The notes beneath the pieces were generated by a model. It ran no database searches. It worked only from the letters and a program-made list of their open reading frames with translations, and was not told the DNA's origin. Positions 7,050-64,000 of a stretch of DNA of 64,000 nt are shown here, in pieces. Source of the DNA: Rhizaria sp. SCN 62-66 (lineage: Eukaryota); assembly GCA_001724265.1 (NCBI GenBank), contig MEDY01000011.1, positions 1 to 64,000 of the forward strand. Direction: 5' to 3'. Each line of letters starts with the position of its first letter. Positions within the stretch are counted from its first letter, which is position 1. The position numbers and the translations under genes are program-made.

Positions 7050-7640
7050 TTACTTATCCCTTCCGGCTCGCGCTGCAACAGCAAGCGCGGCGCGGAGCTC
7101 GTGCTCTCTAGATACAATAACAGCCCACGTTCGAGCAGTGCAGTCGCGGCGGGACGAGCCGCGCGCGCCGCCGGGCCAGAGCCCGCGGACGGAAACGCAC
7201 GCGACACGATGCCAGTCGTGTCGCGCGCGCCGTCCGCAGGATTCAGCGCCCAGCGGCGGCGCGCGCCAGCAGCCCCGCCCTGCACGCGGGTCAGCGCAAA
7301 GTGGCAAACTTCAAACACACACCATGAGAAAGACGAAACAAAAAAATGATGTGCGTGCAAGGTCTGCCAAGTGTAGTCGATCTTCCTTCGCTGCAGCGGC
7401 CGGCTGCGGGGGCGGCGCGGGGCGGAGTCGGCGCCAAGCCGACAAAAGGCACCGCGCGCCCTCGCAGCCGGCGTGCGGCTGCAGCGAAAGAGAACGACAG
7501 TTTTTTCAAACAACTGCAAGTCAAAAACAAAACCATTAAAGAAAATTGTAACATTAACTTGATCGAAATACATACAGGACAATACAAAGGAGTCAAAAAG
7601 AGAAGTGAGTCCCGTGCTTGATGCGCCATAAGTGTTGCTC
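7050..7640 (-). ncRNA. Candidate structured, possibly spliced non-coding RNA with two long GC-rich nested hairpins
   Basis: Nested inverted repeats at 7138-7285 and 7376-7498. Four imperfect positions in the first hairpin become G-U pairs on the minus strand. Intron-like segments at 7575-7514 and 7358-7280. Boundaries approximate. Confidence 0.5.
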
Positions 7641-13700: not shown

Positions 13701-16059
13701 CGCGCCCATCACAACGCTGTCTTCGTCCTCGTCATCCTCATCGCTGCTGTCGGAGCTAGCCGAGGTAACGGAGACGGAGACGATGCGCGACGAGCGCGGG
13801 TCAAGCCCCAGCGCATCAGCAGACATTGTCGCGAAGCCCCCGGAGGTCTGGTTCAGCAGGGCCTCGAGTGCGACGCCGCGGGGGCCCGTAGCGCGCGGCA
13901 GGGCGTCAGCGGTGGCCGTGGCGCCCGTGGCGGCGGCGAGCCAGCGCGGCACGCCCATGACGGCCTTGTGGCCGCGCGGGGTGGACTCGAACAGCACAAC
14001 CTTGCACTCGGTGGCCTCGGCGCATTCGAACTGCGGGCCGTAGAAGCCAGGCAGCTTCGACACCGGCATCGAGACCGGCGCGCGGGCCAGAGGGTCATCG
14101 ATGGTGAGCACGAGCGACTCGCGGGATGAGCCGTCCACAGTCACCTGCGGCAGCAGCGTGCAGTCGCCGTAAGGGCACATCTGGTGGCGGTCGGGCGCCG
14201 CGCACACGCAGATGCCCATCGTGGGGTCGAAACGACCGGCGGCACGCGCGCGCGCCTCAGCCTCCTGCTCAGCGGTCAGCGCGCTGCCGCGGGGCACGTT
14301 GGACGCGGCGCCGCTGCGGACGCGCTTGTTGAGCCCGGCGCCGCCGCCGGTGACGGCGGAAGGGAGCAGGCGGACGTCAACGTGTGCGCAGGCGCTGGCG
14401 CAGACGAAGGCATCGGTGGGGTCGACGCACACGCCCGCGGCGGAGCGCACCTCGCCGTCGGCGCAGGGCTCGACGAGCACAGGCACGCAGTCGGCGGTCG
14501 AGTCGACGTCGTGCGCCGTCACGGCGGCCGCGCCAGAGGCGTCGGAGCTGCGGCGGGAGTCGTATGACACGTAGCCGGGGCGGCAGCGGCACTCGCCGTG
14601 GGCAGACATGTAGAAGCGGCCGGCGCCGACGCAGGCGCAGGAGGCGCCGCCGGGGGCCGCGACGGCCGAGGCGCCGCAGGGAGTGCAGTGCGCGGCGCCG
14701 GGGCGGGCCGCGATGGCGCGGTCGCCGCAAGGCGCGCAGGCCGCGGCGGAGATGGCGCCAGGGACGGGGTTGGCCGAGCCGGCGGGGCACGCAAGCGGCT
14801 TCTCAGCGCCCGCGGGGCAGTAGTGGCCGGTGGGGCAGAGCATGCCGTTGTGGAGCGCGGGAATCGTGGGGCGCGCCTGCGTGGTGGCGCCCGCGCACAC
14901 GTGGCCGGCGGCGCAGGGCAGGCAGGTCAGGCGGGCGGAGTCGGCGCCGTAGGTGCCCGCGGGGCAGGGCGCGCAGGCGTCGTGGAGCGTGGAGCGGAGC
15001 AGCAGCGCGTCGACGCGGTCCAGCGGGAGCGCGCCCGAGGCCAGGAAGGCGTCGCGCGTGCCGGCCGGGCAGAGCAGCGGCGCCGCGGCACCAGCAGGGC
15101 AGAAGGAGCCCGGCTTACACGGGGAGCACTCGAAGGCGCCAGTGGTCGCAAAGGAACCCGCGGGGCAGGGCACGGGCGTGGCCGTAGCCAGGAGCGGGCA
15201 ATGCGCGCCGGCGGGGCAGGCTGAGCACACGGCGGCGCCCGCGGTCGCGAAGAAAGCGGGCGAGCACGCGACGGGAGCGGCGGCGGCGTCGGGGCAAGCG
15301 TGACCGGCGGGGCAGGGCACGCAGATGGCCGTGCCGGCGGGCGCGGTGGTGCCGGAGGGACAGGGCTGCGGGACCGAGGACGCGGCGGCGCCGGCGGCGA
15401 TGTCCTCGGCGGCGGCGCAGGCGAAGCCGGCGGGGCAGGTGCGGCAGAGCGCGGAGCCCGCTGGGGAGTAGGTGCCGGTGGGGCAGGCCACAGGCAGCGC
15501 GTCGGGCGCCGGGCAGGAGAAGCCGTCGGGGCAGGAGAGGCACTTGGAGGAGCCCAGGGGCGCGTAGGTGTTGGCGGGGCAGAGCGCGGGCGCAGCGTCA
15601 GCGTCGTGGCAGGCGTAGCCAGCGGGGCAAGACGTGCACGAGACGGAGCCTGCGGCGGCGGCGTAGGAGCCGGTGGGGCAGGCGACGCAGGCGTCGGCGG
15701 AGGAAGCGCTCGGGTTAGCGTTCATCGTGCCCGCAGGACATGCAAAGGCGGCCTGGCAACCGCCCTCGCAGCTGCAGAAAGAAAGAAAAGGGTGTGCAGT
15801 GGGACGATGAAGGGAGAGGAGAGGATGAGTTTGAGGTCACAGGGGTTATGCGGAGAGTAGTTGCATGCAAGTGAAGAAAAAGTGGCGGGATAGAGTAGAA
15901 TATGCAATGTCAAAAAAAGAAAACGTACAAGTGTCCTGCAGGGCAGGCGATGCAGCTCTCCTTTGAAGCGAAGGAACCGGGGGAGCACTGCAGCTGGCAC
16001 TGCTGTGCTTCGACGGCCCCAAAAAGGAGCGCGAAGAGGACACACGCCAACGCAAGCAT
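7776..16059 (-). CDS. About 2700-aa type I membrane protein: signal peptide, Cys-rich GCC2/GCC3 (ephrin-receptor-like) repeats, one TM helix, very long cytoplasmic coiled coil, C-terminal globular domain
   Basis: Exons 16059-15929 and 15771-7776. The GTACGT..TGCAG intron joins CPAGH-F-CEGG. Signal peptide MLALACVLFALLFGAVEA; many CPAGxxC repeats; TM segment LWIVYILILAFVGVSILIAIFA at about 13048-13113; stop TAA. Alternative in-frame ATG at 16089. Confidence 0.85.
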
Positions 16060-29279: not shown

Positions 29280-31556
29280 TCACATGCCTCCATTGTTGTT
29301 GCTGTTGCTGTTGTTGCCGAACTGGCGATTGCCCGCCGCCGCGGCCGCCGCCGCCGCCGCGACCGCGGCTGTGACAGCCGCTGTGGCCGCCGCCGTCACC
29401 GCCGACACGCCCGCGCTCTGCTGCCCCTGCAGCTGACCGTGGGCAGCAGCCGGGTGACCGTGTGCCGCGTAGCCGCCGCCGGCGAGCGCCCCCGCTGTGT
29501 GCATGCCGCGCGCGGCGGCGGCGGCGGCGGCGACGCTATTGGCGTCAGCGGCGCTAAGCGCAGCGCTGATCGCCGCGATGGCAGCGGCGGGGAAGCCATG
29601 GCTGCCCACGAAGCCGTTAACGCCGGGGATCGAGCCGCCACTGGCACCGCCGCCGCCGTTGTTGCTGTTGTTGTTGTTGTTGTTGTTGCTGCTGTTGTTC
29701 TCGGCAGCGGCAGCCGCAGCCGCAGCAGCCGCCGCCGCCGCGACGGCCGCGACACTGCTGCTCGCTGCACCAGCCATGCCCGCGCCCGCGCCCGCGCCGG
29801 CCGCGGCACCAACGCCAGTGCCGGCAGCGGCCAGCGGCAGCACGCCAGTGCCCGCAGCGGGGGCGGCGACCAGGGCGGCGACGGGGGCGAGGGCGGGCCC
29901 CGCAGCGGCGGCCCTTGCGGCGGCAGCAAAAGAGGCGGCAGACGCGCTGTCCGCCCCCGCGCCCGCCGCGCCCGCGGCGCCCCCGCCCACAGCTGCGGCG
30001 GCGGCCTGCGCGACTGCGAGCGCGCGCTTCTGGCGGAACCGCTGCGAATACTCCCTGCTGCGCTGCGCGTACGTGGGGTCCTCCTTGCGGCGCTGGTTGG
30101 CGATGCGCATGCGTTCACGCGCCTCTTCGACCTCCTCGGGCGTCCGCCGCGCGCGCCAGCGGGCCTCGGCCTCGCGCTTGCGTTCGCGCGCCTCCGCGTC
30201 GTGGCGCAGCGCCGCGCGGTACGCGACCCCGTACGCGCGGCGGCGCTCGACGGCCTCGGGGGAGAGCTGGCGCGCGGCCTCGCGCTCGCGCCACTGCGCG
30301 TTGGCCACGGGGTCAAGCGCGCGGCGGCGCGAGGTCTTGTCGAGCCCGTCGAGGATGCGCGCCCACACGACGCGCAGCTCGGGCTCGGACCAGTTGGGGT
30401 AGCTGCGCCGCAGCGAGGGCGGGATCGGGTCGCGCTCCGTGTCGGTGCGGCGGCCCTTAATGCGGTACTTGAGGTTCGGCGCGTCGGGGTTGTGGAACAG
30501 CAAGGGGTCATCCTCGCTCGCCACCGTGGGCACCTCGGGAATCACCGCGCGCCGCGGCCGGCGGGCCACCCCCGAGCGCCGCTCCTGCAGTTGCCGCAGC
30601 TGCGCCTGGCCCTCCTCGTTGTCGTCATCTTCATCGCCCTCGCCGTCGCCCTCGCCCTCGCCGTCGCCCTCGCCGTCGCCGTCGCCGTCGCCGTTAGCGT
30701 TGAGCTCGGTGGGGACGAGGGCGCCGGTGGCCCCCAGCGCACCGCCAGCGGCGCCGGCAGCGGCGCCGGCGGCAGGGCGGGCGCGGGCGGCGGCGCGGGC
30801 GCGGGGGCGCTGCTGCTGGCCATCTTCGTCCTCGTCCTCCTCCTCGCCGTCTTCGTTGCCGCTGGTGATGTAGTTGGCGCCAACAGCTGCGGCGGCGGCG
30901 CGCGGGGGTCGGCCACGCGGGCGCCTGACCTCAGTTCCGGGCACAGCGCCAGGATCAGCCGCAGCTGCAGCAGCGGCAACGGCAGCAGCAGCAGCGCTGG
31001 CGGGCGCACGGCGGCGCGCCGCGACTCTAGCGTCAACGCCCAGGCCAGCGGCAGCCACGGCAGCAGCGGCGGCGGCGGCAGCGGCGGCGGCAGCGGCAGC
31101 GGCTGAGACAGTGGCTCCATCGCCCAGTCCGTCGCCCGGAGCAGCCGCGCCACCGACCGCGGGGACTGGGTGGAGAACCACGCGGCGACGCTTGACGGCA
31201 GCGCCGGCGGCGTCGCCGTCGGCCTCAACCTCGGCGTCACCGGCGGCGACACCGGCGGCGTCGGCAAGGTCGGTGTCACCGACGGCCGCGGCAGCCCGGC
31301 GTGCGCGTGGCTTCCGCTGCCCCATCCCAGCGGCAGCGGCAGCGGCGGTGCCAGGGACGGGGCCGGCGCCGGGGGGCAGGAGCGTGTTCGTGGCCCGCTC
31401 GGCGGCGGCCGCGGCGGCCGCGGCGAGGGTGACGCTCAAGTCGTCGCTCGAGGGGCGCGCGCCCTGGCCCTGGCTCTGGCTCTGACCCTGGCTGGGGCCC
31501 TGCAGCTGGCCAGTGGGCTTGCCCAGCTGTGCAGCGGCGGCTTGAGTCTGCGCCCT

Positions 31557-31649
<93 letters not shown>

Positions 31650-31962
31650 GCTGCTGTTGGCGGTGTTGGTGGGCGGCGTTAAGCGCCAGCGTGATCGCGT
31701 TCTCAGTCATCGTCACAGCATGCGCGTCAGGCCCGCTGACGTGCTTCTTGAGCTGCGCCTCAAACGCGACAAGTCGCTGGAGGATCTGGTCCTGCTGCTG
31801 CTGCTGCACCATCTCGAGCAGCTGAAGCTGGGACGGGTCGTAGGCGTGCTGCTGCAGCTGCAGCTGGTCCGCGCGCGTCTGCAGCTGCTGCAGCTCCTGC
31901 AGCGCGGCCGCGGCGGCGCCGATCACCGCACTCGAGCTCATCGTCGCCAGCCCCGGCGGCAG

Positions 31963-31997
<35 letters not shown>

Positions 31998-32673
31998 CCG
32001 CAGCGGCGTTGGCGTTGGCGTTGCCCGCGCCGTTCGCTGCCGCAGTCGCCGCAGCAGCGGAGCCGGCGGCGGGGGCGGCGCCGAGGGGGCGGCGGGTCGC
32101 GCGGGCCGCTGCCGCCGCGGCAGCCGCGGCCTGATGCTGCTGCTGTTGTTGTTGCTGCTGCTGGTGGTTCTGCGCAGCAGCCTCGGCGGCAGTGACGCGC
32201 GTGTTGCGCTGCCCCTGCTGCTGTGACGCGTTGTTGGCGCTGGCAGCGGCGCCCGCGCGCACGTTTGCGGCGATTCTCGGCCGCTGTGACACAGCCAGCG
32301 CGGCCGCGACGGCAGTGAGCGCCGCCGTCGCCGCAGAAAAGCTGGGCGCCGCGTTGCTCGCGGTGCTCGCGGTCAGCGCAGGGGTGGTCACGGTCACGGC
32401 GGCGGGCGCGGGCGCGGCGGCCTGGGCGCGGCGGAGCGTGCGGGTGGCGACCGGGGCGTCGTCGGCAACAGGTGCGGCGGCGGATGAAGCGACGGGGGCA
32501 GCGGCTGGCTTGGCGGTCACTGCATCGCTTTTAGGAGCTATTTTGGCCTTCGCAGCGACAACCATGGCTGCAACGGATGCGGCCGCGGCAGTGGCAGCGG
32601 GGAAAGGCTGGGAGTTGTTGGAAGCGGCCGCGGCGGCAGCGGCGGCAGCGCGCTGAGACTGCGGTTGTGACAT
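29280..32673 (-). CDS. Ala/Gln-rich probable nuclear protein with AT-hook (RRPRGRPPR) and basic helical region, about 1130 aa; reading frame broken by one extra base in a CAG tract
   Basis: The frame from MSQPQSQ (32673) to 31648 joins the 31646-29280 frame if one base near 31647 is removed, reading HQHR-polyQ-RAQTQ...DDLSVTL. Stop TGA. Confidence 0.7.
31557..31659. repeat. (CTG)n/(CAG)n microsatellite of about 34 units encoding polyQ, with a 1-nt phase slip
   Basis: 30 in-phase CTG/TTG units at 31557-31646, one extra base at about 31647, then 4 more units. Confidence 0.95.
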
Positions 32674-47521: not shown

Positions 47522-50500
47522 TTAGTTCTTGTTCTTCTTGCCGCCGCGCTTCTTCCCGCCGCTGCTGGCGCCGTCGCCGTCGCCAGCCCCGCCGTCGCCG
47601 TCGCCGCCAGCCTCAGCGCCCGTGGCCGCGCCATCGGCGTCGCCGTCCTCGGGCGTCTCGGCCGCGGCCGCAGCCTTGGCCGCCGCGGGCTCAGCCGCCA
47701 CAGCGGGGGCCGCGGCCGCAGCCGCAGCAGCCGCAGGGGCAGCCGCCGCAGCCGCAGGCGCCACCGCAGCTGCGGAGGCCGACGCGGACGCGGAGGCCGA
47801 CGCGGTCTCCTCAGCCTCGAACACACGGCGGCTCTGCAGCAGCGCCTGCGTGTTGCGGTAGTGCGTGGCGGCGACCTGGGCCTGGGGCGAGTTGCCCTCC
47901 TTGGCGAGGTTCTCCTCGACCAGCGCGACAAGGCCGCGGAGGAACTTGACCTCGACCGTGGGGCAGCCCTTGTCGTAGAAGTACAGGTACCGGTTCAGGA
48001 TCTCGACGAACAGGTGTGCGTGTGCGCCCATGCACGCGTCGGCGATGTTGAGCGCGCGCTTGAGGCACTGCAGCACGCGGCGCTCGTCGCGGCCCACGTG
48101 GCCGGGCACGGGCTGCGGCGGCAGCGCGGGCTGCGCCGCGGCCGCGGACCCAGGCGGTGCGGGCGCGGACGCCACGGGCCAGAAGAGGTGCGCGCAGTTA
48201 AGGATGGCACGGCACTGGTCGGGCTTGGTGAGCAGACGCGACGAGTACTGCGTGGCCTTGGACGCGAGCGTGTCGTAGTTCTCCTTGTTGAGCGACACGA
48301 AGTTGGGCAGCGAGGCGACGATGAAGGTCAGCGCCGCGATCTGCGCCTTGGAGTCGGCGATCTCGGTCTCGTACGCGATAAACGCCTGCGCGGCGAACTC
48401 GTACGCAATGGCCTCGTGGCCGCACTTGTCGGCGACGAGCGCGGCCTGCATGAACAGCCGAAGCGCGATCTCGGGGTAAGGCTCGACAAGCACGGCGATC
48501 GTCTCGTGGATGAAGTGGAACACGCGCTTCGTCTTGGTCTTGACCGCGGTCGCGCCGGCGGCGGCGTCGTCAGCGGCGGCATCGGCGGTGGCCGAAGTGA
48601 CCGTGAGCGCGTGCTCGCGGGCGTGCGCGCGCTCGGCGAGGCGCAAGGCACCGTAGACGAGCGTGGGCAGCGTGTACGCAATGCGGCGCGGGCCGCCCTG
48701 GCCGAAGTACTTGCGCGCGTTAAGGTAGAGCTTGAAGAGCGTGTCGATGTCGTCCGAAGCGAGCAGCGAGAAGATGCGGCACACGAGGTGCTGCTCCTGC
48801 TCGAACTCGTACGCCTCGGCAGAGTCCGGGTCGGCGGCGGCCGCGGCGGCGGCGTCGTCGCCCGCGGTGGACTTGTCGTCCTTGAGCAGCGGCGACAGCA
48901 GCACGAGCAGCGCGTCGAGCGTGCCGACGTCGTCGAGAGGCGTGCGTGACGCGAGAAGCGCCTCGCAGATGGTCGAGGCCACCTGCTTGCGCTCCGGCAG
49001 CGCCAGCGCGGTGAGCGCGGCGTCGTAGTTGGTCAGCTGCAGCATGCGGATGCCGAGCCCGTGGAGCGGGATCGTGAGCAGACGGATCGTGGCCTGGACG
49101 ACCTTGCTGTCCAAACCGGCGGGGCCCGCGAGGCGGAGCTGCTGGGCGGTGAAGCCGAGTGTCTGGTCCACGAAGTCGATGCGGTCGGGGTGCACGATCG
49201 AGGAGAGCGTGAGCAGCGCGACCTGCAGCGCCAGCACGTCGGCCAGCGGCATCTTGGGGTTGCCCGCGACGATGCGCGCAGTGTACTCGGACAGGATCGG
49301 CATCATGCGCTGGTACAGCGGGTTCGCCGCCAGAGTCGCCGCCGCGGCCGCGGTGCCGGCGCCGCCGTCGATGGCGCCCAGGGCGGTGCGCGCGGCCGTG
49401 GCGAGACGGTCCATGAGCGCAGTGAGGATGTCCTTGGTGTTGACGGCGTCCTGGAGCTGCGAGCAAGCGGCCAGGAAGGTCTCGAGCGTCTCGAGGTGGA
49501 ACTCGTCGGGGAACACCTGTTATAGTCAAAAAAGAAAACAATCAAAATAAAATGAATGAACAATCAGCAAAATGAAATAGAACAACTCGATGACACATTG
49601 AGGAACCAACTAATATTTGATGAAAAATCGAAATCAAAAGAAGGCGTACCTGGATGACGCAGTCCATGAGGAACTCCTGGGCCATGACGTCCTGGCAGTT
49701 GATGACCTGCTCGAGCACGCGCGGCAGCACCTCGGTCTCGTACAGCTGCAGCGTGAGCCCGTTAAGGTTGGACAGACGCACGAGGTCGGTGCCAATGAGC
49801 TCGCGCAGAGAGCGGCGCTCGCGCTCGCGCTTGACACGGTCGCGCACCGAGGCCTGGTGTTGCATGCGAACCCAAAGCTTGTTCATTTCACTGAAGTTCT
49901 GCAGGATGAACTCGATGGCGTCGTGAACGGTGCCGCCCTCGCCCTCGTAGCCGGAGCCGACGTCGGGGAGCTTGTCCTTGGCCATCTGTGACAGGTACGA
50001 GCGCAGGAAGAGGCCGCGCATCGGGTGCTGCACGCCGCGGCACAGCTCAACCAAGTCGAACAGCACGTCCTTGGCGGGAGCGCGCTTAGACTTGATGTAG
50101 GTCGACGCGACGGTGATGAGGAGGTAGAGACGCGGGATGACGTTGCCGCAGTGCTGCACAGTCTCGTACAGGTCCGCCACGTTCTGGCCCTCGGCGCCGT
50201 CGGACTTGAAGTAGCGCGCGTTGATGTCGTCGAAGTGCTCCTCGGCGTCGTTCATCGCCTCGACGACCTTGATCCACAGCTCGTAGTAGGTGCCCGGCGC
50301 GAGCTTGGCCGTGCGGAGATGCTGGACGACCTGGGACGCGTGGGAGAGCGCGCTCACGATGTTGTTCTGGTCGAAACCGCGCTTCATAAAGTACACGCTG
50401 CGCTTAATGTGCTCCACGGCGCGCGCCAGAAGCTCGCTCTCGTCCATGGGCTGAGCAGCCTGTGACGCGGAAAATAAGGGAAGGTGCGTAGTGAGCGGAG

Positions 50501-50700
50501 TCAGGGGATGTGAGAAGGTGTACAAAGAGTTGATAATGGGGGGTGGTACTGAAAATAGTAACATTTTAGTATATGCGCGCTATGTTGATGTCTACAGGGC
50601 ATGACTTTGAGGCATGAAACAATGAATATGACCACGGTAGGCGGGCGGATATTGGGTAGGCGAGAGGACAAGGACGTACCCCAGCAGCTTGGCCTGACAT
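47522..50700 (-). CDS. VPS35: Retromer subunit VPS35, about 941 aa
   Basis: Exons 50700-50680, 50459-49650 and 49516-47522 with phase-0 GTACG..CAG introns. Motifs GNVIPRLYLLITV, CRGVQHPMRGLFLRSYL, NFSEMNKLWVR and DCVIQ|VFPDEFHL. Stop TAA. Confidence 0.97.
49517..49649 (-). other. Spliceosomal intron, 133 nt (VPS35); reference example of this genome's introns
   Basis: GTACGC donor, T-rich body, ACAG acceptor. Removal restores the conserved IQ-VFPDE. Confidence 0.95.
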
Positions 50701-51425
50701 CGTTGGTAGGGACGCGGAAGGCCTACATAAAGCAACAGAAACGGTAGAGAACGGAAGGTAAGTCAAATATCAAATCATCTAGCCGTGTCATGGCCTTTGT
50801 GGAGACATAAAAACCGCTGTGGAGCGGCTGGCAGAGAAGAGACGTCACCACTCATGGAAGCGAGCACAGCGCATCAAAATCGATATAATACATCCCCAAG
50901 ACCAACGTCACTACCGCTATAATTGAAGCACATAAACAAACCCACACACACGTTTCTAAACAATCCAAAAACACAATAACTTCCAGAGCACAAAGACAGA
51001 TATCTCCTTCCCAACAGACGGGCACCAAGCGCCTTTGGCTCAGTCTCTGCTTGGCCTCGCTCCCACTCGGTCGATCACTCGGTCGGTTTGTGAAGAGACC
51101 GCTAGGGAAGCGAGACTGCTGAACTCGGGAAGTTAAGCCGCGCGTGGAACTATACATTTTTTCATTTGTGGGGCCTATGGCATCGCTGCAGGACTGAGAG
51201 CATGTTTGTTTAGCCTGTTGGACTTTATTCTTGCTTTGGTCCGGTGTATATTTGCGCCAACGGTTGCTGTAGACGCCGGAGTATCTCGCTGAAGTCTGAG
51301 CACGCGAGCGCCAACAACCAACTGGGCCTGGCGTCAAACACATCCAGCTGGCCGCCCTGAACGTTGAATATCGTGGCGTTCGACTCGAAGCTACTCCAGG
51401 CCATTTTCTAGCGCGCCGTGTTGCT

Positions 51426-51669
51426 ATGCAGCTATTCAACGCCATCTTGTGCTCCGTACACCCATCTCGAGCTGATGGGTCCTCCACCCTCGACCCAAGA
51501 CGTCTTCTTCGTTATATCCACGCCGAGATTGGCCCGCTGCCTCCTCACCACCAAGTATGTGTATTTAGTTCAGTATTGACACCCCTTTGCATTGCTCACA
51601 CTTTTACTGCCTTTCTATCTCCCCTTCAAATCGCGTCCTGACGCTGCTCATCCTGCTCTCCAGGCGTAA
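51426..51669 (+). CDS. Spliced 44-aa small ORF, probable uORF of the PP2A-B56 transcript
   Basis: ATG at 51426, 43 codons, phase-0 intron 51555-51663 (GTATGT..CTGAC..CTCCAG), then GCG TAA. Confidence 0.5.
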
Positions 51670-52394
51670 CCACCCTCCCATCCTCGCTGCGTGTTGCTGA
51701 GCCCACTCTCTGCAACAGTTGCCCAAGACTGGCGTCGGGAGCGTTTCCGCCTGTCTTTGCGCACAAGCTCTTATCGTTTCTGTTTGCTGGCTCGCCCGCG
51801 CATCCTCCGTCTCGGCGTCCGTCACCGCGGTGCCGTCGCTGCTGCTGCTGCGCCAGAACCACCTCCGTTCGCTCTTCGCTCTCGCTCTCTCTGTGGTCTC
51901 GGTCGTCGCCGCTCGCTCACCCGCGCCGTTGCCGACATCGTCACCGCCGCACCCGTCGCCGCACCGCAGTCTCAGCGCCCGTGAGTGTCGCTGCTTCTGT
52001 CGCCGTCGCCGTCGCTGTCGCGCTGCCCCCCTCTCTCTCAAGCAGACCCGAGTTTAAGTCAGTACACGAGCTCTGTCGCTGTCACTGTCTGTGCTCGCTC
52101 CCGCGCTTACCCGCCAGTCTCAGTGCACTAGATTGCTGTCGCTGTTGCTGCTACTGCTGCTGAGACGCCTTGCTCGTTCAGCCGCCTGTCTCTAAGCGTC
52201 AGAGTCTGTGTCACCCTCGACGGTTAGCCACTCAGCCAGCCTTCCTGTTCTGCGGTGTTGTCTGACAGCTTCCGCGGCCAGCTCAGCTTGACTCAGAGTC
52301 TCAGCCCTACAAAGCTGTCTGTCGTCGTTGACTTACAGGAGCCGCATTAGCAGTTTCTGTCAGCACAACAGTCTAGTCTTGTTTCTTAACTAAC

Positions 52395-52531
52395 GTACGC
52401 GTGCAGCTGGCTTACCGTTGGTTGTTTTTTGCCCTGTTAGTTTCATTTAACTTAACACAGAGAAAACAGCAGTGCATACGTGTCACCTGCTTATCTCTTT
52501 CTCTTTCACCCACGCTACGCTACCGTTCTAG
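52395..52531 (+). other. Probable 5'UTR intron of PP2A-B56, 137 nt
   Basis: GTACGC donor, pyrimidine tract, TTCTAG acceptor; size matches the other introns. Confidence 0.55.
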
Positions 52532-52758
52532 GCTCGTCTCTCAGTCTAGTTCAGTTCGTTGCAAACTTACTTAGTCCAACTCTACCCCATCACTGTCCGT
52601 CCGCGCCGCTCTATATAGCATCTAGCAGCGCACGCCCATAGTCTCACTAAACACCTCGCCACAGCCACAGCAATCGTCTCTATCGCACATACTCCCTCCT
52701 CGCAAAACTCACTCGATACTCAACCACAGCGGGTCAACACACAGAGAACTGTCGTAAG

Positions 52759-54492
52759 ATGAGTGCCCCATTGTCCACAGCGTCCGCGGGCGGCGGCGAA
52801 GAGAAGTCCGCCTCCGACCTCGGCGAGTACGTCGCCAACAAGTCCCTCGCGCGCTGCCGTCAGGCGCGCTCTGTGTCGCGCGCAGTGCTTATCCACAATC
52901 TGCCTTCGCTGCGGGACGCCGCTCCGTCGCAGCGCCAGCGCCTGTTCAAGAAGAAGCTGCGGCTGTGCTCGTACATCTTCGAGTTCGGGACCGAGTCCGC
53001 GGACCCGGAGCAGGACGGGCTCGACAAGGAGCTCAAGCGCACCACACTGCTCGACCTTATCAACTTCCTCTCCATCTTTAAGCCGGCCTTCACAGACGAC
53101 CAGCTGGGGGAGATCTTCGAGATGATCTACCTCAACCTCTTCCGCCCCTTGCCCGCCAACGGCGCCGAGCGCCGCACGCCTTACGCGCCCGAGGACGAGG
53201 ACGACGTGCCTGGCCCGTCGTGGATGCACCTCCAGGTCGTGTATGAGTTCCTGCTCCGGCTCGCCACGGCGACCGAGACGGACTCGAAGCTGCTGGATCG
53301 CTACTTCTCCCAGTCCTTCGTGCTGGGGCTGCTGGAGCTGTTCGACTCCGAGGACATCCGCGAGCGCGACTACCTCAAGACGATCCTGCACCGCATCTAC
53401 GGCAACTTCATGTCGCTGCGGCCCTTCATCCGCCGCTCCATCAACAACATCTTCTTCCGGCTCATCTACGAAACGGACCGGCACAACGGCGTGGCCGAGC
53501 TGCTCGAGATCCTGGGCTCGATCATCAACGGCTTCGCGCTGCCGCTCAAGGACCAGCACAAGCAGTTCCTTGCCAAAGTCCTGCTCCCGCTGCACAAGGT
53601 GTCGCGCATCGACTCGTTCCACGCGCAGCTGTCGTACTGCGTAACGCAGTTCATCGACAAGGACCCCACGCTGGCGTCGGGCATCATCCTCGCGCTGCTC
53701 AAGGTCTGGCCGCAGACGGCGCACAAGAAGGAGCTCATGCTGCTCAACGAGGTCGAGGAAGTGCTGTACCGCGTGCACTCACGCTACCTGGGCGACGCGC
53801 AGATCCCGCTCTTCCGCCAGCTCGCGCGCTGCATCCACTCGCCGCACTTCCAGGTCTCGGAGCGCGCCATCTACATCCTCAGCAACGAAGTCATGGTGCG
53901 CTTCGTGGCGACCCACCGCCAGACGCTGTTCCCCGTGCTCGCCGACGCGCTTTTCTCCAACACGCACCTGGCCAACGGCGGCGTGTCGCCCACGTCCTCA
54001 GTGACGGCCACGGGCGAGCCCTCGACGTGGGTGCCCGGCGCGTCGACGCGCCCGCACGGACACTGGAACGCGACGATCGTGGAGCTCACGGCCGACGTGC
54101 TTAAGACGTTCGGCGAGATGGACGCCGCGACGCTGCGCGCCTGCAAGGACCACTTCGACGCAACGGTGCAGACCGAGATCGCCACGCGCACCGTCCGCGC
54201 GCAGCGCTGGGCCGCCGTGACCGCGATGGGCGCGGCCGTCGCCGAGCGCCTCGCCAAGGTGCACGCCGCTAACGCTAAGGCCCGTGGGGAGCGCGCGCTG
54301 GGCACGTTCCGCCCCATCCCGGGCACAAACTGGACCGGCGGGGCCAACGTGCCCACGCCCGTCGCCGCGCCCGGGGTCACCGGCGCTGCGGCGGCCGCGG
54401 CGGCCAACGGCGGCGTCGTCAGCGGCGCACAGATGGCGCAGGCCGCGGCCGCGGCGGGGACGCCACTCACGGCCGGGTACCGGCGCTCGTAA
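52759..54492 (+). CDS. PPP2R5: Protein phosphatase 2A regulatory subunit B' (B56), 577 aa
   Basis: Motifs LFKKKLRLC, PSWMHLQVVYEFLLR, LLELFDSEDIRERDYLKTILHRIYG, HNGVAELLEILGSIINGFALPLK, SPHFQVSERA and GHWN. Stop TAA. Confidence 0.97.
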   Translation: MSAPLSTASAGGGEEKSASDLGEYVANKSLARCRQARSVSRAVLIHNLPSLRDAAPSQRQRLFKKKLRLCSYIFEFGTESADPEQDGLDKELKRTTLLDLINFLSIFKPAFTDDQLGEIFEMIYLNLFRPLPANGAERRTPYAPEDEDDVPGPSWMHLQVVYEFLLRLATATETDSKLLDRYFSQSFVLGLLELFDSEDIRERDYLKTILHRIYGNFMSLRPFIRRSINNIFFRLIYETDRHNGVAELLEILGSIINGFALPLKDQHKQFLAKVLLPLHKVSRIDSFHAQLSYCVTQFIDKDPTLASGIILALLKVWPQTAHKKELMLLNEVEEVLYRVHSRYLGDAQIPLFRQLARCIHSPHFQVSERAIYILSNEVMVRFVATHRQTLFPVLADALFSNTHLANGGVSPTSSVTATGEPSTWVPGASTRPHGHWNATIVELTADVLKTFGEMDAATLRACKDHFDATVQTEIATRTVRAQRWAAVTAMGAAVAERLAKVHAANAKARGERALGTFRPIPGTNWTGGANVPTPVAAPGVTGAAAAAAANGGVVSGAQMAQAAAAAGTPLTAGYRRS

Positions 54493-55928
54493 GCAGAGCA
54501 GAGCAAGTGCGCAGAATAGCGCTTTGAAGATCAAACTGCGCAAACACGGTAGCAATGCAAAGTTTAGCATCAGATCGAAGTTGTGTCAAGGTCGTGTTAG
54601 ATGGCTCACTGTTGAAGTGAGGTCGAAATTCCGGCCCGCTCAGTGTGTCTGTAACTGCACACCGCTTTACGGTATGATACGATATGATGCTATGCTATGC
54701 TAGACTGGGCTCCTAAGTCTATCTCTCTCGTGTTGCACTCGCTGACTCGGGTGCTCATGGCGCTGGTTGCACTGTATTGCATTGTACTGTGCAGCACTGC
54801 AACGCGCTGTCTTGTGATGTCTTGTGCTGCATGTCACTGCGAGGCAGTGCCGTTCAGCTTTTGCTGTGTATAGATTTATACGCTCTGTTCGTCTGAGTGT
54901 GTGAGTGTATGAGTGAAGATTCTCGTCGTCGGTTGGGTGTAGTTAGCTGGCTGTCCGATTGGACTATGCGTTTAATTCTGTATAGTGCAGTCAGTCAAGC
55001 AATCCTCCCGTGGCTTTGGAAAGTGTGTGTATGTGAGGCACACGGCTTGACTTTGAGGCCGTGTGTCCTGTATAGGATGAGAACACGTGTGTGGAAGGTA
55101 GACTTTTGATGGAACATCTAGTATTGGAATAGGAATTGGAATCGTGGAAGAGTTTATAAGTATTATAGAAGCTACAGACCGAAAAAACAATTAAAATTAT
55201 TGGTATATCAAGGAACGAAAATCAAAACAAGAACAAAATCAAATCACTGGTCAACATGGGGAATATTTGCATAACCTACTGCCTTCCTTTGAAGGCTGTC
55301 TTATCAACAAGCAACAACAACAAAAAACAGAAACATATAGCGATGCTAGTGACCTTGGCGATATGTTCATACGGTCAGGAAGCTATGAGGATGACGATGA
55401 CGACAACGGTGAGGCAAGACGAGATTGTTAGCAATAGTAACTCCTGTCGCAACTGAAGTTGTGCGTTGGTGTCTTAGACACTTAACACCGCGCGCAGACC
55501 GACTTGTTGACCGATCTTGTGGTCGTCAGAATCAATACAAACATCATGTCTAATACTTAAACAATCTACTATGCTTGCTTTTCACTGCAACAATCTCCCG
55601 AAGTGTGACTCGTTTTAAAGTGCACCATGGGCGGGCGATGTTGATCGTGGGTGACTTGGCGGGATGAGCTTCTGGGTGAGTTTGAAAGTTCAACTGAGAA
55701 CATCTCGATCAAATTACCGTCAGGCAAAATGTCACAACATTATGGAATTTAGCGCACATATTTAAGCTCAATTTCTTTATTATAACTCTTCTTTGCTTGT
55801 TTTAGTGCTAGATTTCCGCATCAGAGGACACGACGAGGTAACCGTTGAAGAGCCATCGCCCACAGCAGCCGCTCCCTTGTCCACAGCATCGTTTTCGCCA
55901 CAGTTGTCTCTTCTGCGACTGCTTCCGC

Positions 55929-58900
55929 ATGGACCTTGGTCCAAAGCCCGCGCCCGTACGGCGTGGCAAGGCCATGAGCATTGTAGATACCACGTACCGT
56001 GAGTTCTTGACCCTGCTCTCAAAGAAGCAGCACCGAGAGTACGTCGTCATCGGTCAATTCATCGCATAACTCAGCAGAATAGTACTTTGTCGGTTGTGGG
56101 TGATATTATTGTGCTTTCCATCTTATTTTGTTTTATTAATTGTGGTTTTGTCGTTTCTAGGGCGCTTTATCGCATCAAGAACGGCGCGCCCATGGTCGAC
56201 ACCCGCCTTGCTCCGCTCTTCTCGTCCTCTTTCTTTCACGACGGCGGAGATATCAACGCGCGCGTTGCCGCCGCGCGCATCCGCAACGACAACCGCGCGC
56301 TTTCTGCGCAGCTCCGCCGCATCCGTGCGCAGCCCTCAGCCTCGCTCGCTCTCGTGGGACTGCTGCCTAGAAAGTAGCAACCTTCTCGAACTGCGAATCA
56401 ACAACAGCAGCGTCATGTGTCTCATGCGTCTGCTGATGGTGATACCAACGAGCTTGTTAATTACACTAATGACAATGTTAACTGTGATTATGAATACGGC
56501 GACGCCGATTACAACGGCGACAACTACGACAACTACAACGACGGTGACTATGCCAACATCGCGAATGACTCTAGTCCCACCGCCGCCGCCGCCGTGGGTC
56601 CGATTTCGCGCGGCCCCGTGCGCCACTACCGCGAGCGCCACCCCATGCCAGTGTACCAGCACGCGGGCGCCGCGCGCCGCGCCGCCGCGCTGGCTGCCGG
56701 CGCCGCCGACCACCGCCGTCGCGCCGCCCGCTGCGCCGCCATGAAGGGGCAGGTTTTGATCAACCTGAGCGAGAACTGGCCGCGCGTGTTTGCTCGGCAC
56801 AAGCAGACGCTGGCGATCCAGGCGGGGCGGCCGCGCAAGGGCAACTCGCAGCGCGCGCTGCCGCGGGAGGAGTGGGCCGGACGTGTGCTGAGGGAGAAGC
56901 TCGCCATCGAGGCGGAGGCGGAGATCGCTGCAAACACGGTACGCCGTACATGAAGTGAATAACAGACTCTTCTTTTTTTGAATGTGATCTTGCAATGAAA
57001 ATATAATGTGTTTAATCTCACTTTTGTTGTATTTTTGTTTTGCTGTGTTATATCGTCTATATTTAGGCGGAGGAGCTGACTCTTGCTAGCCGTGCCGCCG
57101 CCCCGCCGCGCCGTCCCCAGACTGCCAACGCCGCCGCCGCCGCAGCGGCCAGCGAGTGGGCGCCGGCGCTGCCCGCGCCCGCAGGCGCGATGGTTAAGGT
57201 TGGCGGCCACTTGGTGCCGTCTGCGGAGGTGGCGCTGACGCATCCTTACTATGACCCGACGCTGCACGCACAGGTACGCTGGACTGCAATCGCTCTCTTA
57301 AACTGAAACATGTCACGTTGTATTGATTGTTTCAATCATATGCAGTGCATATGTCTTTTTTGTATCATTCACAACTGCTTTCATTTATTTTTTACTTCGC
57401 ACACATGTTACGCAGACCTCTGTTGAGGCGAAACGCGCCTGGCGCCGTGCCCGCGCAGTTGCACTCTCCCTTTCTCACAACAACAATAACAACAACGACG
57501 ATAACAACGCCTCCAGTCGCGGCACTGAGCAGAATGATGACGAAACCGTTGAGCTCGATGTTGAAGTGGACGCCGCGCTGGCAACGCTGTTGCGCGCGTA
57601 TGGTGTGAAGCTGGACTTAAGCACTCTGTCTGAAGAGGAGTTGTCCGCCGTGGAAGGGTTCCTGATGCAGCAGCAAGAGCTGGAGCAGGAGTTTGACCAA
57701 GATCAAGAGCAAGATCAAGATCAAGAGGAAGGGCAGCTTGTTGAACACGTTGAATATGGCAACGACGCGCAAGATAAGGAGCGCTCTCAAGAGCTTAACG
57801 ATACAGCTCAGCAGCAACAGCCACGGCAGCATCGGCCGCAACAACAACGCCCTTATAGCGGCTCCCGTGTCACGTTCAGCACTGACTCTCAGCAGCAACA
57901 GCAGAAGCAGCAGCGCCCCCGCCCCGCCACCGCCCAGCCCCGGGCCCACAGTCGCGGGTACGGTCCTGGCCACGGCCACGGTCAGGGCCAGGGCCAGGGC
58001 CAGAGCCGGGTGACCGGTGGCGGCGGCGTGGGGCCGGGGCTGGCCGCACTGGACCCGGCATCTGCGCTGGGCCGGTCCGTGGCCGCAGCGGAACAGAGCC
58101 GGCGCCAACAGCAGCTCGAGCAGCAGCAGCAGTACCAGCAGCATCTGGAGCAAAAGAAACAGCAGCAACAACAACAGCAGAAGCAGCAGCAAATGCAGCG
58201 GCAGCGGAGCCCCAGCCCCGCCCGGCCCGACTCATCCCTCTCGTCCTCGTGCCCACAGTCCCGCTCGCAGTCCCGCGCGGCGCAGCCGTCGTCGCGGCCT
58301 CCGTCCGCGCTGGCACAGGCGGCGGGCTTTCGCCCCGGCGGGCCCGCGCTGTCACTGGCCGAGACCACGGCGCTGCGCGCGCCCGCCGCGCCGCCGCGGT
58401 TCACGGCGCTGGGGCCGGCGGGGTCCTACGGACAGGGTTACGGTCTGCAACCGCATCCGCAGCAGCCGCAGTCGCTGCAGCGTGGGCGGGAATTCAGTCA
58501 GTACCGCGGTGGTTCTAACGACAACATGAGTAGCGCTGCGTATAATGATGGTGAAGATGAGGGTCGCGACGACTATGATGGCTTCCATGATGGTAACTAT
58601 GGCTCTCATGCACTAGCTATCTATCACCAACAACCGCAACAGCTGCCGCAGCAGCACAACTCTCGCCCACCGTCTCAAGCGCAGTCACCCCCTCACTCAT
58701 CATACTCGCAATCACAACAACAACAACAGCAGCAGCAGCAGCAGCAACCGCAGCAGGTTTGTGCGCGCCCGCCCTCAGCAGCAGCCCTTCGCCACGCCAC
58801 TCTGTCCCGTCCCCCGATCGCGGGCCCCCGCCCCTCTACTATGACGGCGCCGCCCGTCGCGCCCAACGTCTTCGACTTACAGCCTGCGACGAGCGCTGAG

Positions 58901-60076
58901 TACCACTACGCGGCCCACGCGCCCGCTACGGTGCTCGCGGCGGCGCGGCGCGAGGCGCACTTGGCCCATGCAGCGGAGCACCGCGCTGCCGCGGCCGCGA
59001 AGGCGCGAACTAGTGTCAAAGCAGCGCGGGCCGCCAGCGCTAAGACGAGGGATGTCAGTCGCGGTGGCGGTCAAGACGGGACAGCGGAGGAGGAGGAGCG
59101 GCAGCAGAGGCTACTGTTGGTGCAGCGGTGGCAGCGCGAGGAGGAGGAGGAGAGGGCGCTCTATTACGACTGCGACCTCGCATTCGCTGACCCCGACAAT
59201 CACAACTATGGCAGCGACGGCATCGTGAACTCTCGCAACGGCGCTGCTGAGAATGGAGGCGAGGGCGGTGGCGACACTGCCGGTGACCGCGGTATGGCTG
59301 CCTTGCCCGACGCCGACAGCTATCGCCGCGGGCTGTGGTAGAACGACGTGGCCCGAATGCGCGCGCTGCTTTTGGAGGAAGAATCCGCTGCTCTACACCG
59401 TGAACAACAGCAACAACAGCAGCAACGGCAAGAGCAAGAGCAAGAGCAGCTTAAGCAGACAGAGCAGCAGCAACAGCGCTGGCGCATGCGTGTGCAGCTG
59501 CAGCCACAGCAGTCACGGTTGCAGGCGCAGTCTCAGTCGTCGCGGTCGCGGACTCAAGCGCAGGCGCTCGTGGCCGCCGTCGCAGTCGCCGGCACTGACG
59601 CCGGGCTCCCGGTGCACATGTACCCACGCGTGCCCCCCGCGCTGCCGCCGCGCGCCGCGCCGCCGCCGTCGATCCGCGCGCTCCCGCCGACAGGCAGACA
59701 CGGCGACGGCTGCAACGATGTCGACGGCGACGGCGATAGTATGCGGTCTCGTGGCGGGACGGAGCCCGAGCTGGCGCGGTCGCCCGTGCGCGCTTTATAC
59801 CCCGCCAGCAACGGCGCGTATGGTGCAAGCTCTTGTGCTGGAGCGCGCGCGCCCCGTCCCTCCACTGCAACAGTGTCTGCAACTGCGGCGGCGGCCAAGA
59901 ATAGCGGCAGTGGCAGTGGTATTGGCAGTGGGCCAGTGGCGCGGCCCGGCTGGCCGGTGAAGCTGATGGACTGGGGCGACGCTGAGGGGCTCGACGCACG
60001 GTACGCGGCCGGAGGCGTGGGTGGCGGAGGCAGGGGCGTCGGAGGAAGCACGGTTGCTGTGGCCGCACGCAAGTAA
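55929..60076 (+). CDS. Four-exon gene with N-terminal CFAP97/KIAA1430-like domain and Gln-rich tail; about 1251 aa if two in-frame TAGs are read through
   Basis: Exons 55929-56038, 56161-56938, 57067-57273 and 57416-60076, all with GTACG..AG introns in consistent phase. HREALYRIKNGAPMVDTR...RIRNDNRALSAQLRRI resembles the CFAP97 domain. TAGs at 56375-56377 and 59339-59341; final TAA at 60074-60076. Confidence 0.7.
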
Positions 60077-61418
60077 GCAAAGAAAGTGATGTAAAACATA
60101 ACCTGTCGTTGCGACAGTCACTGCTGCGTCTTGACCTGAGACCGCGAACGTCAATTTAAACGAACGAGATACTTAGAAATGTGGTTATTTAGACTTGAAC
60201 AATACAATATATGTTTGTATGAGCCATCGTAAGCGTTGTTCAAGTTAATATGCATGCTGATATGCAGTAGACGACAATGGCACGCCCCTGTCTGAGACTC
60301 ATTTAAATTAAGTAAATCCTCGCTCAATATCGATATTTCACAGTAGGTATCTGCAATTTCAACTAAAACTGTATTTTTTATATTTGATGTAAACATTTTT
60401 TTGTCCGAATTTTCGAATATCATCCTGTGTTTTTTGCATTTTGTATTTCTCTTTGAGACGTGAAAAATATCGATCGCCAGAAATAAGAATGAATGACAAA
60501 CACTCTCGAAACTGTTTTCTTTTGTAGCGCGCTAGATTTAGCATGAAACAAAGTTTAACCAACTAAAATCACATTAATTTGAAAAAAGACATATCCCACC
60601 GCAAAATCCGTGTTGATGAAGCACATGGCAACATAGAGCATGGAGTTATGAGAGTAATTTTAGCAATTATAGGAAACAAAATCTAGTTTTCATAGAGAAA
60701 CAACATTATTTTTAATATAGTGCGTTATAAGACATTGTTTAAGTACAATTTTTATTAATATACGCAATAATTCAAAAGAAAAATATAAGATAAATAGTAT
60801 TGAACAGCCTTCCCTGCTAGTGCTCGGTAGATCGTCAGAATGACCCACCTGAACGCGGCGCTTGAGATGAATTGTCAAAACAAAAGGGAGTAATCCTTTT
60901 AGTTTAAGGTATGAACCTGGACATTTGTTCGGTTATATCTGCTCAACTCACGTGAGATGAGCATCCGAGCATGTGCGTGTAATTCCGAGTCATCATACGT
61001 GTCACATCATTGCTTTTTCTCGTGATGGAGGTCGGATATTGTTTTGTATTGCGTCATACAAACTGGACTGCGTTGGGCACCTCGCCAAGCAACAACCAGT
61101 GTTCGTTTGAAAGTTCGTATTCAGCTTATTCTGCAAAGATACGATGGTGATCTAAGTATTCCCAGTCCTTCCGCCTTGTTACAGCGGAAGCGCCAGGAGA
61201 GATAATTTTGTTCTAAGTAACGTCATAAACAACCATATACACATCTCATGACAAGATTGTCACAGTCCGCTCACTTTGAGCAACGATGTGGCGTTCGTTG
61301 CAGCCCTACGTTTATATTAGGATTACTCTGCTGTTGTCATTGTCAGCCATTGTGCCACCCATGAGTGAGTGAGGAAGTGAGTGGGTGAGCGGGCATTACG
61401 CGTGTGAGTGTGATTAGC

Positions 61419-62063
61419 TTACCTGCGCGTGTTAGCCGGGGTGGACTTAAGCGTGGACTTATGCGTGCGGCAAATGGCGTGCACAATCGCGTACGCGTTG
61501 GGCTCGGTGGGGCGCGACGCCGAGTCCGGCGAAAGAAGAAACGTGTGCACGAAGCCGTACGACTGCTCCTTCATGCCGAACTTGGCGTCGCCGGCGATGG
61601 TGACGAGCAGCGCCGAGTTGGCGCCGTTGGCCGCCGGCATCACGGGCTGCACATCCAGCGAGAGAACCTCGTGCTTCGAGATGGGGAGCACCGAGGTGAA
61701 GAACGCGCGGATGTCGGCGGCGCCGGAGTAGGCGGTGCCGTCCCAGATCAGCGTCGCCTGCGCGCTGAACATGTTCGCCAGGGCCTGTGATATAGGACGC
61801 GAGAGCGCCAGCGAGAGCGAGTTGAGATGGTGAAGGCAAGAGTTGCGGGGAGCGAGGACAGCGGGGTGGGATACGGTGAGATTATGAGGTATAAGAGGTG
61901 TAAAATCACGTCTAGCGCTAATAGACAAGACATTATAAGACTAGGGTGGAAATGGCGTGTGACGTACGTCGCGACTGGAGTCACAGATGGTGTAGAAGAC
62001 GTCCTTAAACGACTCGCCACTGAGGTCTGCGACCATTTGTGTGGTCTGCGGATTGATCTGCAT
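61419..62063 (-). CDS. NXT1: NTF2-related export protein (p15/NXT), about 153 aa
   Basis: Exons 62063-61968 and 61784-61419 with a GTACGT..CACAG intron. SFKDVFYTICDSSRDALANMFSAQATLIWDGTAYSG..LP.SKHEVLSLDVQPV..LLVTIAGDAKF..FVHTFLL matches the NXT pattern. The TAA overlaps a possible GTAAGC donor, so a tiny last exon is possible. Confidence 0.88.
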
Positions 62064-62437
62064 ACTGTCTGAAGATCGGGTGTTAAAAGATGGCCAAGTA
62101 TGTCAGAGTTTTACAGTTACGGCAGTGAAGTTTCAGCGCAATTGACAATCGTATGAGGGCACTAGCGATGGATTTAGACAGGCTGCCTGGGGGCAGATCG
62201 GACACGACCGATTCGAGGTGGACCGTCCAGTCGGTCGGCAACCTGCGGCTTAACTTGAGCAACCGGAGATGATCTTTGGAAGGTAATTGTGCCTCATAGA
62301 GACGACTTATGCCGCACATAGCGCTACTATTTAAATACTTCTACTCTTGATCTCTATCCAAGTTTATTAGCTCATCGCGAATCTCTCTGTAACCCTTTCA
62401 AATTGCCCTCCATTTTCCCGGTTGTCCTCAGTCAACA

Positions 62438-62961
62438 ATGGCCAAGGTACGCTTTAAGACCATTTTCGTATCCTTATATCTCCTTTTATAGTCTATTCGT
62501 TCTTGATCTTGGCGACCGTTTGTATATTCTGTCATTTATCACTTGCGGTGTTTTGAACCGCTTCTGTTTTCCCCGTCAAATGCGCTCTCTCCGTCTGGTC
62601 GGCTTCTCATCTGCTGCCTCGCCCGTTTTCTACTTTTTCCTCGCTGCCGTGCACAGAAGAAGGTCAAGACTGTCCTCGTCAAGCTCCTCAGCCAGGCTGG
62701 CACTGGTTTTTTCTACCTGCTCAAGAAGAACCCCACCAAGGTTCGTCCCACCCCCACTTAGCCCTCTTCTCTCCCATAGCTCTGCCCAACCACAAACCAT
62801 AACGTCTCTCGTCTGACTTTGCCCCGCCCTTGCTCACGTCAATTCTCGCCGCATCCCTTCACCCCATTGCTCCTCTCCAGAACCCCGCCAAGGTGATCAT
62901 GCGCAAGCACGACCCCGTCGTTAACCAGCACGTCATCTTCCAGGAGGCCAAGCTCAAGTAA
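62438..62961 (+). CDS. MRPL33: Mitochondrial ribosomal protein bL33m, 57 aa, three exons
   Basis: Exons 62438-62446, 62657-62740 and 62881-62961 give MAKKKVKTVLVKLLSQAGTGFFYLLKKNPTKNPAKVIMRKHDPVVNQHVIFQEAKLK then TAA. Confidence 0.93.
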
Positions 62962-63675
62962 GCGCTTCTCACAGCGTCACGCACACAGCGATCACATACT
63001 AAGCGAGCACGTTGTGGCTGTGTCTTGCTCTCTCTCGCGCTCTCTTGTACGCTTCCTGCTTCAACGCATCCCCGCTCTGTCTTGACTACTTACACGCGCG
63101 CGCCTGTGCCTTCTTGCTATGCTCATGATGCCTCAACACACAGGCATATAATAGCTTGAAGAAAATGAGCGAAGCAGAAGCAACCGTAACGAGAGGACAA
63201 CTGTTTCGGCAAGACACCCGCACGTTCTTTATAATTCCTTAATACTTCCCCATAACCACAAGCAAACATCGAATATTTAATCACACATCGCCGCTCTACT
63301 CTGTATCCGCACTCGCGTAGCAAGCGAGCAAGCACAGATAGCATGAGCAATAACAACACGATAACAGCAAAAACAGAAAGAAAAACAACACAATCTACAA
63401 AGCAATACAAACTCTATATTCCAAACACAATGACGCTTGTTCACATTGTTATTGTATCTACAACACATTGATTTAATCCCAGTGTCTTTTGTTTGATTAT
63501 TTGCTTTGTCGCGTTAATATCAGTATCACCAGGTCTCTCAATGCAAACACCGACAATGCGTCAATGCGCAAGAACGAGATGTGTCCTAATCGACGTCCGA
63601 ATGAAACGCCTCCACTGGCCTTTATCAGAAAGTGTCGCACACAGGCTGCATCGTGAGATTACACGCTCAGCTCAT

Positions 63676-64000
63676 TCACTTGTAGTCCTTGCCGCCCCAC
63701 TGTCGCTGGCGACCCTGCTGCCCGCCCGCCGCCGCGCCGCCTCGGCTCCCACCAGCGCCGCCGCCAGCGTTAGCGCCGGCGTTGCTGAGGCCGAGGCCCG
63801 CGTTAAGGCCGGCGCGGGGCCGGTTGGAGTCGTCGAGCAGCGCGTGGTCCTCGAACGTCCGCACCACGGGCGCGTCCTGCCCCACATCCCAGTGCGTCGA
63901 AATGGCGATCTTCTCCCCCATCTTGGCCAGCGTCTCCTGCAGCATGGTCGCGAAGTCCTCGCCCATGCGTTCCATGCGGCGCTTGTGCTCCGCGATCTCG
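63676..64000 (-). CDS. 3' end of a coiled-coil protein resembling dynein regulatory complex subunit DRC12/CCDC153 (5' part outside the window)
   Basis: EIAEHKRRMERMGEDFATMLQETLAKMGEKI resembles the CCDC153 C-terminal helix. Stop TGA. Confidence 0.55.
   Translation of the reverse strand, partial: EIAEHKRRMERMGEDFATMLQETLAKMGEKIAISTHWDVGQDAPVVRTFEDHALLDDSNRPRAGLNAGLGLSNAGANAGGGAGGSRGGAAAGGQQGRQRQWGGKDYK

Follow-up and report, generated by a model that had tools for sequence, protein, structure and literature searches.

Has UAG become a sense codon in the organism assembled as Rhizaria sp. SCN 62-66, or has one of its genes simply been broken? The question arises at a spliced gene that holds two in-frame TAG codons, TAG1 and TAG2 (Table 1), on contig MEDY01000011.1 of assembly GCA_001724265.1, of which we analyzed positions 1 to 64,000 of the forward strand (the window). 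A first-pass annotation made from the sequence had proposed reassignment of UAG or readthrough. The explanation that we place first, at a little under even chances, is a young pseudogene under the standard code that carries two fixed nonsense changes, and such a recently broken gene stands narrowly ahead of an incipient UAG reassignment. The weights given here to all explanations are rough and build on order-of-magnitude priors that are not drawn from data.

The gene comprises four exons and three introns on the + strand and counts 1251 codons up to its terminal TAA, which lies 244 codons beyond TAG2. Phase is consistent across all three introns, each of the form GTACG...YAG, and after joining of the exons the two TAGs were the only internal in-frame stops. 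Two TAGs inside an otherwise intact spliced gene, with a frame that stays open past both, had been reported by the first-pass annotation and were borne out here. For comparison we used the 15 other genes of the window (16 segments, 15,151 codons; 16,402 codons when the TAG-containing gene is included). The 100 codons that follow real gene ends contained 3–12 stops in 15 of 15 cases and gave coding scores of −0.79 to −2.02 under a model trained on the window's other genes, as against zero stops and scores of +0.20 and +0.21 over the 100 codons after TAG1 and TAG2, respectively. Equally long stop-free runs arose in 26 (TAG1) and 21 (TAG2) base shuffles out of 5000 each. Hence neither TAG resembles the end of a gene, in agreement with the first-pass annotation, and one ancestral coding frame, not three genes, extends across both.

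We consider it unlikely that the TAGs are never internal codons at the ribosome, whether as the ends of separate neighboring genes or because introns with atypical signals remove them. The first 50 codons after TAG1 and TAG2 do score low (−0.48 and −0.21) with a drop in guanine-cytosine (GC) content, the +1 frame beats the main frame over the 50 codons after TAG2 (0.47 vs 0.0), and a Met lies 6 codons past TAG2. However, scores below −0.2 also occur in 10.8% of 977 segments of the same gene far from the TAGs, in similar Q/N/D-rich patches, 90 codons separate TAG1 from the first Met, and the intergenic gaps of the window measure ~330–2300 nucleotides (nt) with no gap at the TAGs. In favor of splicing, both TAGs are preceded by G, giving GTAG, and a frame-keeping GT-AG stretch of 201 nt exists (56374–56574). 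The nine introns examined in the window are 122–224 nt long, start with GTACG (eight) or GTTCG (one) and have a pyrimidine share of 0.68–0.86 before the AG, whereas none of the frame-keeping GT-AG candidates of 40–400 nt (21 for TAG1, 92 for TAG2) has the window's donor, and in all of them the pyrimidine share stays at or below 0.62. Of 71 joints in RNA contigs, whose depth cannot rank expression, 15 were inspected and none of them belongs to this gene, which could also suit removal of the TAGs by splicing. A spliced joint was seen among these 15 only for a gene that we take to encode ribosomal protein L33, and the splicing of the TAG-containing gene is therefore predicted from its sequence.

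Both TAGs are real and common to independent studies. TAG1 is spanned by a contig of study P3 (X4 record 4; 55467–56702, 1236 nt) and TAG2 by a contig of study P5 (X7 record 21; 59189–59415, 227 nt, depth 3.6), each with 0 differing letters; L001, which may be the source sample, matches the window without difference over 4659 nt. A probable assembly slip does exist elsewhere (near 31600, where the frame shifts within a CAG repeat), and TAG2 is backed by a single independent contig of depth 3.6. Even so, an assembly or sequencing error is highly improbable and was largely rejected as the cause, as the contigs of P3 and P5 show identical letters and read TAG at the codons where the first-pass annotation had thought of a misassembled CAG. 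Its broader view, in which both TAGs interrupt a single coding frame instead of marking an ordinary gene terminus, a splice site or a fault of assembly, was right. The strains are near-clonal, with 1 differing letter in 8,369 nt over eight X4 contigs, so that the sharing of the TAGs says little about their age.

Matches to window positions 51000–64000 in runs X4, X5, X7 and X8 come from a nearly identical organism, sampled between 2015 and 2025 in different studies. The organism was present in at least six wastewater or bioreactor studies (11 runs with some word share, several of them small); the source runs cover bioreactors, wastewater, activated sludge and microbial fuel cells, with contigs of up to 150 kb. 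The results draw on runs other than X9–X11, which have a small share. In a metagenome scan with PP2A-B56, 145 pattern matches came down to a single locus, which did not differ from the window.

An established UAG code can be excluded. In the 15 other genes, which include ABCA, WDR3, VPS35 and PP2A-B56, in-frame TAG occurred at 0 of 15,151 codons. Their TAG/CAG count was 0/536, vs 48/548 for TTG/CTG and 23/92 for AGG/CGG as first-position synonymous variants, and the TTG/CTG ratio would predict ~47 TAGs (88 in a binned version). The whole window thus holds two TAGs in 16,402 codons and in 1 of 16 genes, which would equal 0.27% of its Gln, 0.15% of its Leu or 0.22% of its Glu codons, as against ~135 (UAG = Gln) or ~85 (UAG = Leu) TAGs expected at the lowest published rates. 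No further TAG-containing gene emerged from the window, as none of 141 free frames of at least 45 codons scored as coding with a TAG, and no tRNA gene was found within its 64 kb, which do not contain eRF1 either.

Published UAG-only codes are far denser, which is what excludes an established reassignment. Iotanema spirale reads UAG as Gln and keeps UAA and UGA as stops (Panek et al. 2017; PMC5304391), with a GTS change in its eRF1 (PMC9161772). The present case resembles it in that only UAG stands in frame and that genes end only in UAA or UGA (TAG at 0/15 ends here, 0/119 complete ends there; PMC5304391). It differs in density: Iotanema has 204 UAGs in 126 genes, UAG in 348/730 contigs and Gln at 22/28 hyperconserved sites (PMC5304391), whereas the two TAGs of the window share one gene, and none was seen at a conserved column. 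The rhizarian exLh, in which 384 UAGs in 71 genes are read as Leu (PMC5304391), likewise shows a UAG-only pattern and, as here, keeps UAG out of highly expressed genes, and unlike it the window would devote to TAG only the minute share of Leu codons given above. In phyllopharyngean ciliates, UAG makes up 18.5–31.8% of Gln or 6.5–10% of Leu codons and occurs in 78–91% of genes, and two metagenome-assembled genomes contain tRNA-CUA genes (PMC11687900); they too share the UAG-only pattern, but the GC-rich, intron-poor genes of the window show neither the spread of UAG nor a tRNA-CUA. The widespread in-frame UAG of an Iotanema- or exLh-type code, found in at least half of the genes, with which the first-pass annotation had compared the locus, is therefore lacking, and a variant code of known type is not supported.

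Under the pseudogene explanation, the organism would use the standard code and the gene would have been inactivated recently. Two codons, in all likelihood CAG, would have mutated to TAG by single substitutions that became fixed in a near-clonal species, the first as a knockout and the second as a hit free of selection. Translation would halt at codon 109, and since two introns lie downstream of this stop, nonsense-mediated decay would probably eliminate the mRNA; the remaining frame would still be open for lack of time to degenerate. That the TAGs terminate translation, that they arose from CAG and that the gene has lost its function is inferred. The absence of TAG from the 15 other genes and the uninterrupted VPS35 proteins of the clade (see below) favor this explanation. 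A random nonsense substitution in this frame yields TAG in 61–63% of cases, mostly from CAG, and two such substitutions are both TAG with a probability of 0.37–0.39, so that two TAGs need no special cause. Their joint occurrence in one gene by chance has P = 0.006 per codon and 0.03 per Gln codon, which rises to 0.08–0.18, only mildly unlikely, if rare codons are weighted, and follows directly if one TAG had already disabled the gene before the other arose at no cost. TAG2 lies outside any rare-codon patch, as 73–81% of precursor codons have flanks (8–12 codons) that are as AT-rich.

Compared with what we take to be typical of young unitary pseudogenes as a class, real and shared stops are here too found in one poorly conserved gene, with codon bias and splice sites still intact; two nonsense changes without a frameshift are, by the same comparison, a less common state. 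If this explanation holds, the locus is an ordinary case. The first-pass annotation had listed nonsense alleles among its caveats, and we rate these at least as likely as reassignment; the true stop and the readthrough that it listed beside them rank lower.

Several observations weigh against a broken gene. TAG1 lies inside a rare-codon patch (top 5–10%). Over the 3.75 kb of this repeat-rich frame we found no frameshift and no broken splice site; under neutral decay, indels are expected about as fast as nonsense changes, by an estimate from general rates. The only strain variant placed in the gene (56827, in one X4 contig) is synonymous. A 270-nt piece between the TAGs was recovered from a polyA metatranscriptome (X8 record 30), although this run also contains unspliced sequence and may hold DNA, and RNA contigs cannot show expression. 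The window further carries an intact gene for a CFAP68-like microtubule inner protein (6329–6859, +; Atlas score 0.93), by which the organism is probably flagellated, so that the decay is not explained by an overall loss of flagella. Finally, the codons at 15 gene ends are TAA (eight) or TGA (seven), never TAG, with P = 0.017 at the TAG share of 0.24 seen locally in non-coding sequence (267 of 1119 stop triplets) and P = 0.21 at a share of 0.10. TAG use climbs with GC across eukaryotes (PMC9348620). In the standard-code protist Euthynema mutabile, however, UAG terminates no more than 7 of 170 genes (PMC9161772), which makes 0 of 15 unremarkable.

The missing TAG ends and the frame that is intact save for two codons of one kind also speak for the alternative that UAG has ceased to be a reliable terminator in this lineage, being read as an amino acid but extremely rare, either by a very young reassignment or by a weak CUA-anticodon suppressor that competes with eRF1. 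We regard this as a serious but less probable possibility. UAG would have dropped from gene ends and would be tolerated just in weakly expressed genes of low bias. Gln would be the first candidate residue (one transition from CAG), with Leu and Glu next to it; Gln is simply the nearest mutation, because no homologue that we found spans either TAG. Codon bias is weaker in the TAG-containing gene than in any other gene of the window (GC at third codon positions 0.73; A-ending codons 10.5%; CAA at 43 of 135 Gln codons), as would be expected of the first entry point of a rare codon, and exLh, for its part, has UAG rarest in highly expressed genes (PMC5304391). The conserved domain 3′ of TAG1, the synonymous nature of the single strain variant and the presence of both TAGs in several studies point the same way. 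On the other side, usage is ~40- to 70-fold under the lowest published cases, and the share of genes and contigs with TAG falls far below that in phyllopharyngean ciliates (PMC11687900) and in Iotanema (PMC5304391). None of the conserved genes of the window places a TAG at a conserved column, the gene ends are unremarkable in light of Euthynema, and the window has no tRNA gene. Moreover, the VPS35 proteins of the organism's clade are uninterrupted in four of four cases (795–853 residues, in a search that admitted only 346–1103 residues).

In its most pointed form, which we hold tentatively and at nearly the same weight, this alternative describes a long-branch wastewater flagellate at the onset of a UAG-only nuclear code change, in which UAG would already have disappeared as a terminator of genes and would be decoded as an amino acid, possibly in a leaky manner, at ~1 codon in 8000. 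Such a change would be far earlier than the cases compared here, in which UAG accounts for 6.5–32% of its codon family, and screens of conserved columns would miss it. It would put the codon-capture and ambiguous-intermediate models to the test in nature, and a single genome would reveal in which order UAG disappears from gene ends, a suppressor tRNA arises, eRF1 is altered and UAG enters genes. Among the literature, judged by titles and the openings of abstracts, we came across no UAG-only nuclear code in which the codon is used this sparingly.

The TAG-free state of the other genes and the conserved domain downstream of TAG1 would also be accounted for by gene-specific programmed readthrough under the standard code, in which two leaky UAGs give rise to forms of 108, 1006 and 1251 residues. 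The sequence after TAG1, CAACCT, agrees with five of the six letters of the CARYYA context, sharing CAACC with the UAG-CARYYA signal of the tobacco mosaic virus type (PMC4132726), and a modest hairpin lies 3′ of TAG1 (z = −1.86; 8 of 200 shuffles fold equally well). All six CARYYA letters appear to matter, though (PMC4132726), and the sixth is T instead of A at TAG1, which likewise fails the yeast CARNBA context. TAG2 has neither such a context (AACGAC) nor structure (z = +0.80), so neither TAG matches CARYYA or CARNBA, and two serial leaky stops would leave very little full-length protein. We therefore judge readthrough improbable.

The gene is fast-evolving, mostly disordered and poorly conserved. 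A search with exon 2 against 1.84 billion representative proteins gave two matches, exon 2 itself and P0011, and a search of shorter proteins again returned just these two. P0011 is a 76-residue fragment encoded on 2.2-kb contigs of another organism, and its match (Table 1) starts 122 and ends 182 codons after TAG1; it had no lead in Atlas (best score 0.83). None of 1803 candidates was a homologue of the TAG2 region, a weak negative, and across the exon 2, shorter-protein and TAG2-region searches no homologue spanned TAG1 or TAG2. Scans of viral sequences with P0011, P0015 and a TAG2-flanking pattern gave no match, nor did scans of prokaryote genomes with a VPS35 alignment and the TAG2 pattern. 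The CFAP97-like domain that the first-pass annotation had placed before TAG1 was not recovered: seven pieces gave no Pfam match to the CFAP97 (Hemingway) family at E values up to 10, and none was found in Protein Data Bank sequences or by fold. This negative is weak, because the exons were tested singly and the region is divided by intron 1. Folded as a single sequence, exon 2 reached a predicted local distance difference test (pLDDT) value of 51 with no structural match. The helices that flank TAG1 may each be similar to one half of a CFAP97-type domain, which we offer as a lead.

Table 1 Features of the TAG-containing gene (window coordinates)
Feature	Position	Strand	Details
Exon 1	55929–56038	+	ATG at 55929
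Intron 1	56039–56160	+	122 nt; GTACG...TAG; GC 0.37
Exon 2	56161–56938	+	carries TAG1, a D/N/Y-rich low-GC linker and a conserved helical domain
TAG1	56375–56377	+	codon 109; 3′ context CAACCT; same in X4 record 4 and L001
Conserved stretch 3′ of TAG1	56741–56923	+	67% identity (41/61 residues) to P0011
Intron 2	56939–57066	+	128 nt; GTACG...TAG; GC 0.30
Exon 3	57067–57273	+	
Intron 3	57274–57415	+	142 nt; GTACG...CAG; GC 0.37
Exon 4	57416–60076	+	low-complexity, Q/A/S/G-rich; carries TAG2; terminal TAA 60074–60076
TAG2	59339–59341	+	codon 1007; 3′ context AACGAC; same in X7 record 21

Directly upstream of the TAG-containing gene, an AT-rich segment on the + strand (55190–55450) holds two overlapping open frames, one of which starts with Met-Gly-Asn, while the other, which is acidic and rich in Q, terminates in TAG CAA TAG TAA. 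This segment, which was outside the top-scoring free frames, may be the remnant of a decayed gene.

Overall, the window is gene-dense, GC-rich and intron-poor eukaryotic DNA, with genes that include ABCA, WDR3, PP2A-B56, NTF2-domain genes and VPS35. In a quick tree, its VPS35 falls into a long-branch clade of five sequences with P0015, P0023, P0031 and P0033 (Shimodaira-Hasegawa-like approximate likelihood ratio test 100). To judge from these sequences, the clade apparently represents an uncatalogued protist group in public assemblies. The C-terminal part of another protein, P0007, matches the window gene at 7776–15725, and its N-terminus presumably resembles a bacterial Lrp/AsnC regulator; P0007 is probably the product of a chimeric contig.

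Between two convergent genes, a GC-rich non-coding element (7040–7510; 471 nt, z = −8.2) folds into three long hairpins, among them one of 125 nt (~7372–7495; z = −9.55), and is followed by a run of six Ts on the + strand. It matched no Rfam family at the gathering score and could be a small-RNA precursor, a structured RNA of a new type or an inverted-repeat element. Within the − strand gene at 29280–32673, a long CAG repeat (31560–31650) passes from the poly-Ala into the poly-Gln phase of reading, probably through an assembly slip and possibly through a real frameshift. The 2.3-kb gap upstream of PP2A-B56 (50500–52750) contains intron-like signals and pieces found in RNA runs and is probably a long spliced 5′ untranslated region. 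A scan for a tRNA-CUA motif, drawn up from general knowledge, hit only two viral contigs of ~100 kb (L002, 2969–3041; L003, 2986–3058), in which the tRNA with the CUA anticodon forms part of a 13-tRNA cluster, as in TAG-recoding phages, and is unrelated to the TAG-containing gene.

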